DNA of 64,000 bases from a virus (IMGVR_UViG_3300044984_002785); one strand, 5' to 3'. Shown: positions 58,156 to 63,948, counted from the stretch's first letter. Made by a program: numbers and translations. Notes: generated from the sequence alone by a model not told the origin.

Positions 58156-58527
58156 TTAAGTTGCAGCAGCTGGTGCTGGGGGCACCGGTATTGCTGGTGC
58201 CCAAGGCAAGGACGGTTCTGCAACTGGCGTAATCTTATCTTGAATCTGTTTAGCGATTTGTGCATTAACGTGTTCTTCGTATCCACCAACTACTACAGCT
58301 TTAATCCATTGTAGTACTGTGGCTTCAGTAAGGTCTGCAAATGGTACAAAAGTACTATTTGCAGGCATGTTTGTCGATGTAAATGGAGTAGCTCCTGAAA
58401 ACGTACCCTCATTACCAGCCTCGTCGGTGCCAATCTTCTGCCAGTAAGTTTGCACGATAGCATTAGTATTAGTGCCCTCGTCTTTGACCTTAGCACCAGT
58501 TACTTTCCATGTGTATGTAATTGCCAT
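58156..58527 (-). CDS. small protein, paralogue pair member with Pro-rich LPWxPA..PPAP C-terminus
   Basis: FVPFADLTEATVLQWIK...LPWAPAIPVPPAPAAAT. Confidence 0.5.
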   Translation of the reverse strand: MAITYTWKVTGAKVKDEGTNTNAIVQTYWQKIGTDEAGNEGTFSGATPFTSTNMPANSTFVPFADLTEATVLQWIKAVVVGGYEEHVNAQIAKQIQDKITPVAEPSLPWAPAIPVPPAPAAAT

Positions 58528-58561
58528 TTTATTTTCTCCTAAAATATATGACTATGTTTAT

Positions 58562-61900: not shown

Positions 61901-63948
61901 CGTGTACTCGTACTTGCGCCGCGACCAGTAACTGTTGCTAATGTATCTGACTCAGCAGTTAAATATCCCGCATTAGAACCACTAGTAACGTGACCGAACG
62001 TATTAACAGTAACGTTATTATATGTTCCAGCACCTACGCCTGATGCTGCGTGTGATATTGAAGGTGTAGTACCACCTGAACTAACGATTGGTGTAACGCC
62101 AGCGACTGCAGTAACACCTGGATTGTCACCAGTGTTAGTGCCTGATGATGTTCCAGAGAAGTTAGTTGCTGTTAGTGTTCCGCACACAAATGCTTCATAA
62201 GCAGTACCGGGATTATTAAAAATACCGATTCTACCACTGGCCTCCATCGCAATGCTTGATGCTACTACACCTGACCAATGGAATCCAAGTCTTGGTGCAT
62301 AAGCCATAGCACTTCCATTGGCACCTCCCAATCCTGCTTCACGAACTTGAATAGCATTACTATAAGAGGTTCCAGACGTACTTGAAGCTATATAGCTAGC
62401 TCCTGCGCCGTAAAGGTTAGTTGCTGTAGTGGCGCTAGTAGCAGTCGCAGCGTTGCCAGTTATATTGATACCCCAAGTACCAGACGCTCCGCCACCAGTT
62501 AGTGTTGGTGAATATGAGTTATAGTTACCAGCATGTAGTACCTGATTACCTGCTTGTTGCAGCGCTCCAATATTTAAATTGAATGCTGCTGCTGTCATTG
62601 TTAGGTTAGGCGTAGTTGATAGGGTTCCGGTTGCTGCTGATAGTTTAATCATAAACGTATTACCAGAAGTACCATTAGTACCCATCAACGCATATGTAGA
62701 ACCACCACCACCACCAAACCCTAAGCCGGCCCCTCCGCTAATACCAACATCTCTGCCTAACGTGAATCGGGGATATGTATCAGTAAGATAAAATCCGCCA
62801 ATCATGCCACCACTATCAATAGTTCCACGGGTACTACTAGCTACACCTGTTGTTATGCCACCAACTATTATAGCATTAGTGGTTGAGTTGCCTCTTGTAG
62901 TTACTGTCGCAAGTGTATCTGACTCAGCAGTTAAATATCCCGCATTAGAACCTGCAGTAACATGACCAAACGTATTGACCGTTACGTTGTTGTATGTACC
63001 AGCGCCCACACCAGAAGTAGCATGTGATATAGAAGGAGTTGTACCACCACTTGATACGATTGGTGTAACGCCAGCAACACTAGTAACGCCAGCGTTATCG
63101 CCAGTGTTTGTGCCTGATGACGATCCACTGTGACTACCGGAGAAGTTAGATGCACCAATAGTACCAGTCTGTGTAGTATTTCCACTACCATCAATTTGCC
63201 ATTGAATCTGTCCGCCTCTAGCTCCAATAGTAAGATAACGAATTTCAGCACTTACTGAATCAGTTAATCTACCTCTTTCAATAAAGATACCGTTAGCAGT
63301 ATTGGCTGTTGTATTATTTTGATTAGCATATATTACTGTTTGTGTGTACGTTCCAGTGTTACCATTTGATTGAAATGTAAGTGGAATAGCATTAGTAGAA
63401 ACGTATGTAGTACTAGTAGTTGCCCCACGACTCATTACTGTCTGTAGTGTATCTGACTCAGCAGTCAAGTATCCAACATTAGAACCAGATGTAACGTGAC
63501 CAAATGTATTGACCGTTACGTTGTTATATGTTCCAGCACCTACGCCAGAAGTAGCGTGAGATATTGACGGTGTGGTACCGCCAGAACTTATGATTGGAGT
63601 AACGCCAGCGACTGCAGTAACGCCTGCGTTATCGCCGGTGTTTGTGCCAGATGACGAACCGGAGAAGTTAGTTGCAGCAATATTAGTAGCAAATGTTGCT
63701 AACGACGTAGTCCAAGTATGAGTAACTGTGTTATTAGCGCCGGCGTATAATCTCCAATTAATTTTTACTCCAGATGCACTGCCACCGTCAGTGAAATGTG
63801 GATAGTGATTACCAGCAGCATCATATGGGTCATAATAAAAATGACCGTTATAACGATTAGCACCGCTGCTTAATGTTACACCAGTCGATGTAGTAGCACC
63901 ACGAGCAGTAACTGTTGCCAGTGTATCAGTTTCAGTATAGCCAGTCAA
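58927..63948 (-). CDS. giant tail fibre (at least 1673 aa) with internal repeats and C-terminal intramolecular chaperone (peptidase S74-like) domain
   Basis: Gly/Ser/Thr/Asn-rich; repeated SGTWGINITGNAATA and ...GYLTAESDTLxTV modules; C-terminal ASSDIRLKEDIEVI...GVTYTRKENGKRQTGVIAQDV...ITKLEILVAQLIEG matches the self-cleaving chaperone domain (SDxRxK). Confidence 0.65.
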   Translation of the reverse strand: MTGYTETDTLATVTARGATTSTGVTLSSGANRYNGHFYYDPYDAAGNHYPHFTDGGSASGVKINWRLYAGANNTVTHTWTTSLATFATNIAATNFSGSSSGTNTGDNAGVTAVAGVTPIISSGGTTPSISHATSGVGAGTYNNVTVNTFGHVTSGSNVGYLTAESDTLQTVMSRGATTSTTYVSTNAIPLTFQSNGNTGTYTQTVIYANQNNTTANTANGIFIERGRLTDSVSAEIRYLTIGARGGQIQWQIDGSGNTTQTGTIGASNFSGSHSGSSSGTNTGDNAGVTSVAGVTPIVSSGGTTPSISHATSGVGAGTYNNVTVNTFGHVTAGSNAGYLTAESDTLATVTTRGNSTTNAIIVGGITTGVASSTRGTIDSGGMIGGFYLTDTYPRFTLGRDVGISGGAGLGFGGGGGSTYALMGTNGTSGNTFMIKLSAATGTLSTTPNLTMTAAAFNLNIGALQQAGNQVLHAGNYNSYSPTLTGGGASGTWGINITGNAATATSATTATNLYGAGASYIASSTSGTSYSNAIQVREAGLGGANGSAMAYAPRLGFHWSGVVASSIAMEASGRIGIFNNPGTAYEAFVCGTLTATNFSGTSSGTNTGDNPGVTAVAGVTPIVSSGGTTPSISHAASGVGAGTYNNVTVNTFGHVTSGSNAGYLTAESDTLATVTGRGASTSTRVTLSGGVTITSADIRSAATSTWTGDPGAEGKIQYHSNRWYIVSDSSSDRIVQFRRNGSDVSYIDNSGNFIGNASTATTATNAATATNALALNSKPSSAFQQRVHYSTTAGNTGYYKINIVPADSWMISFTIRMYQGYESYDIRVSGYNYGSNFWYTPTASLMDSTTTSIDVRFGYDSAFNLWVAVPAGNYTGLDILNVVNGYTQFDGNYADRFTITNQTTLTGTVQATVTAYRPAKYNEALRTDNYNSYAPTLTGGGASGTWGINITGNAATITSQANSATTTAATAANGNQIVLRDANGDDYRRYGFSSYFNMSHGVSGATGDTIFYSSTDDYIRKNNATGFRASLNVPTRTGGDASGTWGINITGNAATATSADQIDGVGFRNTGSNSAVNADTIESNGISYYSSGVTNFSGNATDGGLYSQAYSSAWQHQIAGDYRSGQIAIRGKNSGTWQAWRTVVDSSNVSSYAITSLTDTLASVTGRGSSTTTPITLQKISWIGEGGNSNNTFSANHYSMGQAGGAWTNPYPDLIIGMHTGIRIGAHYNYRGTRFYNNSPSGTSDSGGGETELMSIGDGDNHVRVAEIGYAGNSFRAPIFYDNNDTTYYGDFASTSWLRHLSVGDVNATNDGGWNARLNLTGSTHARLDVKSNSDGIITTMYSHTGQGVGKVGTYSNHPLVLMAQGGAEGGSVYSGSLRSPLFYDSDNTAYYLDAYGESNINKLTFAAQQRFSVHYRAPGRSSNTTDQEYWTNTVGWGTGDGTWGTYWKFGFGGFDCWGSSTDHPQGSGYIHAQGIQSGLHAAAANGSTAYGWQMVGASNATDNRYWARGKWAATTSTWKEFAMYGGGGSGDLHAAAFYDSNDTAYYLDPNTTGTSLKVAGSIIAGGNITASSDIRLKEDIEVITDAIDKVKQITGVTYTRKENGKRQTGVIAQDVLKVLPEAVEGSEDSMYSVAYGNMVGLLIEAIKDQQTIIDSQESRITKLEILVAQLIEG
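61943..62175. repeat. intragenic ~230-bp repeat copy 1 (tail fibre)
   Basis: GTATCTGACTCAGCAGTTAAATATCCCGCATTAGAACC...GAGAAGTTAGTTGC, about 85-90% identical to copies at 62914 and 63449. Confidence 0.75.
62914..63155. repeat. intragenic ~230-bp repeat copy 2 (tail fibre)
   Basis: Same unit, read directly from the sequence. Confidence 0.75.
63449..63680. repeat. intragenic ~230-bp repeat copy 3 (tail fibre)
   Basis: Same unit. Confidence 0.75.

Follow-up and report, generated by a model that had tools for sequence, protein, structure and literature searches.

We analysed a stretch of 64,000 nucleotides (nt) of viral DNA (IMGVR_UViG_3300044984_002785; the whole stretch is hereafter called the window), in which a giant tail-fibre gene on the minus strand is followed by two small genes of the Pfam family DUF7936 (PF25590). 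Taken as a whole, the evidence makes it probable that this region encodes a modular tail fibre which ends in a Peptidase_S74 (S74) domain, which has been reshaped by the exchange of modules, and which is accompanied by a DUF7936 accessory cassette. The region would correspond to the distal ~85% of a homotrimeric tail fibre of ~1950-2000 amino acids (aa) from an uncultured T5-like phage, and the fibre is probably the side fibre of that phage. Its shaft would be built of reusable conserved modules, i.e. module A (three copies), module B (three copies and a remnant) and one or more beta-sandwich knobs. The distal fibre would consist of two domains open to exchange, which the motif RxPxFYDxxDTxYY (motif C), present in three copies, flanks and separates, with the S74 chaperone as the last 102 residues. 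Comparison with other phages shows that the fibre evolves by the exchange of whole modules between phages at conserved motifs, and not by frequent expansion and contraction of the ~230-bp repeats that it contains. The fibre gene and the features of its distal part are the following:

58927..64000, minus strand: tail fibre gene, 3'-complete (stop codon at 58927-58929), 5'-truncated at the window edge; 1690 codons present
60070..60132, minus strand: motif C copy 1 (C1), aa 1290-1310, RAPIFYDNNDTTYY; marks the proximal limit of the first of the distal cassettes exchanged
59761..59823, minus strand: motif C copy 2 (C2), aa 1393-1413, RSPLFYDSDNTAYYLDA; identity island between the two exchanged cassettes
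59296..59358, minus strand: motif C copy 3 (C3), aa 1548-1568, FYDSNDTAYYLDP; DNA identity to the sister phage is 93% from here to 54000
58930..59235, minus strand: S74 intramolecular chaperone, aa 1589-1690, 102 residues to the stop
59233-59235 and 59218-59220, minus strand: Ser1589, the predicted nucleophile, and Lys1594

The fibre is encoded by a single minus-strand open reading frame (ORF). Listing and translation of the ORFs showed that a TTG at 63948 would give 1673 aa, the minimum length stated in the original prediction, and that no stop codon is present upstream up to 64000, which brings the frame to 1690 codons. Since the frame is still open at the end of the window, the N-terminus lies beyond it. 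The best homologue of the fibre, a protein of 1986 aa (P0001) carried by the sister contigs L007-L009, aligns with the window fibre starting at its residue 277, so that ~276 residues are missing from the latter. The annotation as a tail fibre, which had also been proposed originally, agrees with matches to nine PHROG families, eight of which are tail-fibre families (E down to 1.7e-34), and with the 480 homologous metagenomic fibre proteins that a protein search (E up to 1e-10) retrieved; 120 of these were listed, which measure ~1000-3000 aa and mostly carry PF13884. A Pfam scan of the fibre returned Peptidase_S74 (PF13884) as the sole match, with no detectable depolymerase domain, and a search of NCBIfam found no family for the fibre or for the two small proteins. 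No DNA nearly identical to positions 56000-64000 was found in 50,697 phage records. In a tblastn search of the same records with the fibre as query no place covered at least 80% of the query, and the matches in cultured phages spanned essentially only the C-terminal 8-23%.

The evidence for module exchange comes from the comparison with the sister phage. Contigs L007-L009 present the order fibre, two DUF7936 genes, spanins, endolysin, PhoH and ferritin, and their DNA is 93% identical to the window over 54000-59340; beyond this point, only patches of 75-84% identity are found, which correspond to the repeated modules. When the distal 540 residues of the two fibres were aligned as proteins, identity amounted to 67/80 up to C1 and then to 13/80 and 7/80; it was back at the C2 island, GS(L/M)RSPLFYDSDNTAYYLDA, went down to 15/80, and resumed at C3, continuing to the end at 75/80. 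From this collapse and return of identity at C1, C2 and C3, two cassettes (aa ~1307-1392 and ~1414-1547) are concluded to have been exchanged. The comparison thus places the cassette junctions between these two closest phages exactly at the three C motifs and not at the 230-bp repeats. These junctions are located at 59296-60132 (minus strand) in the window and at 9614-10940 in L007. Motif C itself, R-x-P-x-F-Y-D-x-x-D/N-T-x-Y-Y, occurs three times in the fibre (at aa 1296, 1399 and 1554) and was absent from the original prediction; among the 120 homologues it is present in 74, in one to ten copies. In T-even phages, adhesin specificity is reportedly swapped by recombination at conserved motifs, and the distal cassette exchange described here resembles that process.

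A wider mosaicism was observed when the fibre was divided into segments of 60 aa. The best matches of these segments were 58-98% identical and were spread over 18 different homologues; as they lie in different proteins, the fibre is a patchwork of parts shared with metagenomic fibres.

At the distal end of the fibre, PF13884 matched aa 1589-1640 with a score of 59 bits (E 5.7e-16), the cut-off being 22, and the match takes in positions 1-57 of the 58 in the profile. The sequence SSDIRLKEDI sits at this match, in the register S1589-D-I-R-L-K1594. Among PDB chains, a sequence match was obtained only with 6f45_A, which is gp37, the distal subunit of the long tail fibre of phage S16; the alignment covers the SSD(I/R)R(L/I)K region. 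Moreover, the spacing of Ser1589 and Lys1594 is the same as that of Ser1264 and Lys1269 of T5 pb1. In T5 pb1 these two residues are catalytic, the Thr1263-Ser1264 bond is cut after folding of the trimer, and the chaperone leaves the mature fibre (PMC4690869). The domain of the window fibre combines three features of the S74 class, namely a profile score above the curated threshold, an extreme C-terminal place in a fibre and a Ser with a Lys five residues downstream, and the original proposal of a C-terminal S74 chaperone is borne out by the PF13884 match, the match to 6f45_A and the Ser/Lys spacing of T5 pb1.

By analogy with T5 pb1, cleavage is predicted between Ser1588 and Ser1589, which would free 102 residues. 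As in characterised S74 proteins, the chaperone would trimerise and template the folding of the upstream fibre, and would then cleave itself at Ser1589 using Lys1594, so that the fibre tip becomes exposed; for the fibre described here, trimerisation and autoproteolysis are predictions from homology. The same analogy makes the two distal cassettes, which precede the released chaperone, the best candidates for receptor binding.

The shaft of the fibre includes the repeats to which the original prediction had drawn attention, together with an internal domain:

63424..63654, minus strand: module A copy 1 (A1), aa 116-192; 77 aa, SSGTNTGDN...GTYNNVTVNTFGHVTSGSN...DTLxTVxxRG
62890..63120, minus strand: module A copy 2 (A2), aa 294-370
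61918..62148, minus strand: module A copy 3 (A3), aa 618-694
62425..62532, minus strand: module B copy 1, aa 490-525, NYNSYSPTLTGGGASGTWGINITGNAATATS
61066..61173, minus strand: module B copy 2, aa 943-978
60769..60876, minus strand: module B copy 3, aa 1042-1077
61630..61707, minus strand: degenerate module B remnant, aa 765-790, FIGNASTATTATNAATATNA; listed originally as a fourth copy
61180..61602, minus strand: internal all-beta sandwich domain, aa ~800-940

A repeat search recovered the three intragenic repeats as direct repeats at 61904-62169, 62876-63141 and 63410-63675, with spacings of 972 and 534 nt and cores (module A) of 231 nt or 77 codons. Tandem Repeats Finder reported a 16-nt ACC run only, which means that the repeats are dispersed and not tandem. 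Their resemblance is far beyond chance, as it extends over 77 aa at more than 90% identity. Their DNA was originally described as 85-90% identical, a value that had to be lowered: the cores are 78.8-81.4% identical in pairwise comparisons (74-82% over 266 nt), with 91-94% identity at the protein level. A1 is 80.5% identical in DNA to A2 and 81.4% to A3, and 91% identical to each of them in protein. Pairs of copies differ by 27-30 synonymous against 5-7 replacement codons, and the Nei-Gojobori method gave a synonymous divergence (dS) of 0.70-0.86 and a non-synonymous divergence (dN) of 0.07-0.10; for comparison, dS was 0.06-0.31 for flanking orthologues of the sister phage. The exact runs shared in register by the copies measure 20, 23 and 39 nt, and the run of 39 nt, shared by A2 and A3, is the longest exact repeat in the gene. 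Copies within the gene are 79-81% identical to one another in nucleotides, against 75-79% to the full-length copies of the sister fibre. Given the high dS and the lack of an excess of within-gene similarity, nothing points to a recent duplication, to gene conversion or to slippage at high frequency. The copies are thus old, and selection at the protein level keeps them alike. A recent tandem duplication of module A was rejected on the basis of the dS values, which are too high for it.

The short end of module A, LTxExDTLxTVxxRG, is present five times in the fibre, a point missed in the original prediction. With a hidden Markov model (HMM) of module A, one to six copies were detected in 33 of 121 fibres, and a search of 1.84 billion cluster representatives with the module A profile matched 743 proteins (E up to 1e-3), each with 1-18 matched stretches. 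One contig, L012, contains two consecutive giant ORFs, each with module A.

Module B is ~35 aa long and consists of the leader NYNSYxPTLTGGGASGT followed by WGINITGNAAT. Four copies of this shorter module had been predicted, and three copies of WGINITGNAAT, no more and no fewer, are indeed present (at aa 509, 962 and 1061), while the supposed fourth, at aa ~771, is a degenerate remnant that lacks the SGTWGINI half. The module B motif was found in 70 of the 120 homologues (one to six copies). The internal beta-sandwich domain is common to only three of these homologues, at 66-80% identity; it shows a weak structural resemblance to tailspike, galectin and CBM32 folds, and may possibly be a carbohydrate-binding knob on the shaft.

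Two small genes are located directly downstream of the fibre gene:

58562..58924, minus strand: DUF7936 paralogue a, 120 aa; start codon 2 nt after the fibre stop
58156..58527, minus strand: DUF7936 paralogue b, 123 aa; starts 34 nt past the end of paralogue a, with a good ribosome-binding site

Both encoded proteins match PF25590 above its cut-off of 27 bits, paralogue a with an E value of 3.3e-11 (44.2 bits, profile positions 5-102 of 103) and paralogue b with an E value of 7.7e-17 (62.3 bits, positions 1-103 of 103), and both match phrog_7802. Upon alignment they were 27% identical and had in common F/L/W residues of the core as well as a Pro-rich tail preceded by an invariant PW, in agreement with their original description as paralogues with a common core and a Pro tail. 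The invariant positions of the family include F60, L66, W74 and P108-W109. Behind PW, the Pro-rich tail is of variable length; the homologues of Roseobacter phages end within a few residues of PW. Paralogue b is of a widely conserved type, with 858 relatives in the searched database, of which the 120 best-scoring are 64-98% identical; a tblastn search of phages with paralogue a (E up to 0.1) gave no match. The AlphaFold2 model of paralogue b (predicted local distance difference test score, pLDDT, of 81) comprises a sheet of three strands together with two helices, and its tail is disordered. The sole matches to the predicted fold were further DUF7936 models, among them the ones from cyanophages P-SSM2, S-TIM5 and S-N03. 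DUF7936 is a family named in Pfam without an assigned function, and a literature search found no paper mentioning it. No similarity of the small proteins to the fibre assembly and adhesin families Tfa/Caudo_TAP and gp38 was found in Pfam, PHROGs or NCBIfam.

The genomic neighbourhood of the family was investigated in 80 IMG/VR loci, picked by similarity to paralogue b (family alignment), by scanning their ORFs with home-made DUF7936 and S74 HMMs. Among the 89 DUF7936 genes with at least 1.5 kb of upstream sequence, 46 were directly preceded by an S74 ORF and 16 by another DUF7936 gene (62/89 together), and 27 by neither. Tandem fibre-DUF7936 cassettes, two or more in succession, were found in five genomes (L025, L053, L057, L058 and L084), and the same layout in L061 and L076; in the five, identity between the two DUF7936 copies is only 30-35%, and between the two S74 domains it is 32-54%. 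L026, L043 and L047 have a series of three consecutive DUF7936 genes. Over 40 unique pairs, DUF7936 and the adjacent S74 domain diverge in a correlated manner (Mantel r 0.31, 0/2000 permutations), and the divergence of the 150 residues in front of the cleavage site, i.e. the fibre tip, is hardly correlated with that of DUF7936 (rho 0.08). In the cultured Roseobacter phages CRP-5, a podovirus, and CRP-235, PF13884 is likewise found in the gene immediately upstream of the DUF7936 gene.

On these grounds we lean towards DUF7936 being a fibre-linked accessory protein, which is the best reading of the data. DUF7936 would travel as a cassette with S74 fibre genes and supply them with cognate accessory proteins, acting in assembly or in tip binding. 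A role in fibre assembly or as an adaptor had been suggested originally on the basis of gene position; through the linkage to S74 a fibre-linked role has become plausible, and the more specific role is still read from the position of the genes. It is tentatively proposed, in addition, that DUF7936 represents an unrecognised class of partners specific to S74-ended fibres, with a cognate copy for each fibre, which might recognise the conserved neck or chaperone and either assist or time its release or dock on the surface exposed; the family might then be an analogue of gp38 and Tfa, with an unrelated fold and widespread in aquatic phages.

Several points weigh against the explanation given above. 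The N-terminus of the fibre, and hence its attachment site, is outside the window. Searches of IMG/VR and JGI metagenome contigs with exact and third-position-degenerate DNA patterns, taken from the sequence between the repeats, identified no independent contig across all three repeats, and since contigs break in A3, the order and number of modules upstream of 61980 rest on one assembly. The DUF7936 loci are related and partly redundant contigs, so that the statistics on them are not independent, and the correlation between S74 and DUF7936 can be explained by physical linkage alone. In cyanophage S-TIM5, the DUF7936 gene gp212 (phrog_7802, E 2.3e-21) is not located behind an S74 gene, and it is labelled as hypothetical in a record in which other proteins are labelled as virion structural proteins. 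Finally, the well-studied S74 fibres fold, to our knowledge, without a DUF7936-like partner.

Two alternative explanations concern the repeats. Three contigs of other data sets (L001, L003 and L004) match the window at 100% identity, and two of them, the short-read contigs L001 and L003, end inside A3 (at window positions 61971 and 61919, respectively), beside the 39-nt exact repeat; no other public contig over 62000-64000 was found. Such breaks could point to an assembly artefact, i.e. a chimeric or mis-joined contig. This is very improbable in our view, as every module A copy has its own sequence and unique flanks, the frame is intact over 5 kb, the A2-spacer-A3 segment is colinear with the independently assembled sister fibre (77% identity over 1.1 kb), and other independent fibres carry four to six module A copies. 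The terminations of L001 and L003 in A3 also illustrate how fibre repeats fragment metagenome assemblies. The break of the assemblies at A3 would also fit repeats that recombine actively, with modules gained and lost at appreciable frequency within the population, as would the exact run of 39 nt shared by A2 and A3 and the differences in module A copy number between homologous fibres. Active recombination is nevertheless unlikely, given that the copies differ at ~20% of positions, mostly synonymous ones, that the remaining pairs share exact runs of just 20-23 nt, that no homogenisation relative to the copies of the sister phage was seen, and that the exchange between the closest relatives maps to motif C. 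The original view of the repeats as substrates for variation in length and receptor binding can therefore be retained in part: copy number does vary between homologues (1-6 copies, or 1-18 stretches) and the fibre is a mosaic, but the dS of 0.70-0.86, the limited exact runs (20, 23 and 39 nt) and the bounding of the visible exchange by motif C speak against the repeats as its substrate.

For the small proteins, a tip adhesin or cap has to be considered, i.e. a structural protein that docks on the fibre end after release of the chaperone and is not an assembly factor. The order of an S74 fibre followed by a small gene mirrors gp37-gp38 of S16, whose gp37 is the sole PDB sequence match of the window fibre; each fibre of the tandem cassettes has its own divergent DUF7936 copy, and the family shows variable loops at residues ~50-59 as well as a variable tail. 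However, paralogue b is 64-98% identical in the best 120 of its 858 relatives and the sampled contigs carry very different fibres, a conservation unlike that of hypervariable adhesins. Covariation with the fibre tip was not seen (rho 0.08), Pfam, PHROGs and NCBIfam gave no similarity to gp38 or adhesin families, and the record of the S-TIM5 homologue does not mark it as belonging to the virion, all of which makes this role less likely than not. An even less probable alternative, to which we give little credit, is that the DUF7936 genes are unrelated to the fibre and are late genes of another function, such as lysis timing, at the junction of structural and lysis genes. In the window they do lie between the fibre and the spanin/endolysin cassette, and the S-TIM5 homologue is found elsewhere than behind an S74 fibre. 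Against this, the small proteins have no membrane segment, and the CRP-5 gene, flanked by an S74 fibre and the terminase, is distant from the lysis genes; for these two reasons a role in lysis was dropped. In addition, the tandem fibre-DUF7936 cassettes recur, and even in S-TIM5 the neighbour, beside which gp212 sits divergently, is a baseplate-wedge/tail-fibre connector.

The remaining part of the window was used to place the phage and its lysis genes, and includes the following features:

57706..58125, minus strand: putative i-spanin, 139 aa; membrane segment at the N-terminus, weak matches to spanin-related PHROGs; start of the lysis cassette
57449..57709, minus strand: o-spanin lipoprotein, 86 aa, lipobox LVTGC; Pfam LysC-like (E 1.2e-4) and Rz-like PHROGs
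56823..57452, minus strand: GH19-type endolysin, 209 aa from ATG; phrog_181 (E 5.3e-75)
55743-56084 and 56091-56591, minus strand: small proteins with membrane segments, the former of 113 aa and with two hydrophobic stretches, the latter of 166 aa and with one at the C-terminal side
11634-28784, plus strand: 24 tRNA genes scattered among small ORFs (ARAGORN; 21 confirmed by Rfam)
25262-25680, plus strand: permuted two-piece transfer-messenger RNA (tmRNA) of betaproteobacterial type; Rfam beta_tmRNA 99.6 bits, E 4.6e-29, and tmRNA_permuted 108 bits
5344-6255, minus strand: thymidylate synthase

The two small membrane-segment proteins downstream of the endolysin could be a holin and an antiholin; no family assignment beyond phrog_32327 was obtained for them. 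A PhoH gene (Pfam E 1.1e-65) and a facing ORF are located at 54226-54678 (plus strand) and 54715-55524 (minus strand); the contigs identical to the window and those of the sister phage annotate this ORF as Ferritin (PF00210), and the pair marks the convergence of the two transcription directions. Scans for promoters and terminators over 54000-64000 gave counts at or below the shuffled expectation. Nothing suggesting a diversity-generating or invertible system was seen in the ORFs examined, among which reverse transcriptases, invertases and inverted repeats were not the object of a targeted search.

The plus-strand genes scanned, at ~8-54 kb, are involved in replication and nucleotide metabolism, and include a family A DNA polymerase, a DnaB-like helicase, SbcCD and a ribonucleotide reductase (RNR). 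The DNA polymerase is 49% identical to that of T5-like Vibrio phages, e.g. pVp-1 and VPT02. The anticodons assigned by ARAGORN cover 19 amino acids, with none for Glu, comparable to the T5-like tRNA region, and in the sister contig L007 an ORF upstream of the fibre contains a T5 PB4-spike domain. Based on the polymerase, the 24 tRNA genes together with SbcCD, RNR and PhoH, and the PB4-spike domain, the window is read as part of an uncultured, distant T5-like phage. According to ARAGORN, the tag peptide of the permuted tmRNA is ANDQTYALAA, and the presence of this RNA is a hint of a host among the betaproteobacteria. A tmRNA is an unusual cargo for a phage.

Compared with characterised systems, the window fibre is most readily set beside T5 pb1, the L-shaped tail fibre of that phage, which is also a long homotrimeric side fibre with a C-terminal S74 domain, a scissile Ser with a Lys five residues on, and a chaperone released to unmask the receptor-binding tip (PMC4690869). 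The sequence similarity between the two is confined to the chaperone; neither the shaft modules A, B and C nor the distal domains are related to pb1. With the endosialidase of phage K1F (PF13884/MEROPS S74) the fibre shares the domain family, matched above threshold, and its C-terminal place, while the passenger in the window is a fibre of more than 1500 aa without a depolymerase domain detectable by Pfam. We know of no DUF7936 gene after ltf in T5. Small genes just downstream of the fibre are found in lambda (Tfa), P2 (G), Mu (U) and T4 (gp38), and are often exchanged together with the C-terminus of the fibre. Unlike proteins of the Tfa type, the small proteins of the window gave no family match at E up to 0.01 (Pfam, NCBIfam), and the window fibre has its own intramolecular chaperone. 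The gp37-gp38 pair of T2/S16 (PDB 6f45) provides a parallel in gene order, with the gene of a small partner behind that of a fibre ending in S74; in contrast to gp38, to which it is unrelated, DUF7936 is a highly conserved alpha+beta protein of ~120 aa with a Pro-rich tail.

An S74-ended modular fibre is a known kind of protein, and neither the cassette exchange nor the DUF7936 linkage alters the current understanding of phage fibres. The fibre described here is a clean natural example of host-recognition proteins rebuilt from a common parts list. As the difference between two nearly identical phages lies in a pair of distal cassettes, cut exactly at a 14-residue motif, the comparison offers concrete junctions for the engineering of chimeric fibres in this group. 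The linkage between DUF7936 and S74 is the sole new information, and it provides a first context for a family with 858 relatives in the searched database.

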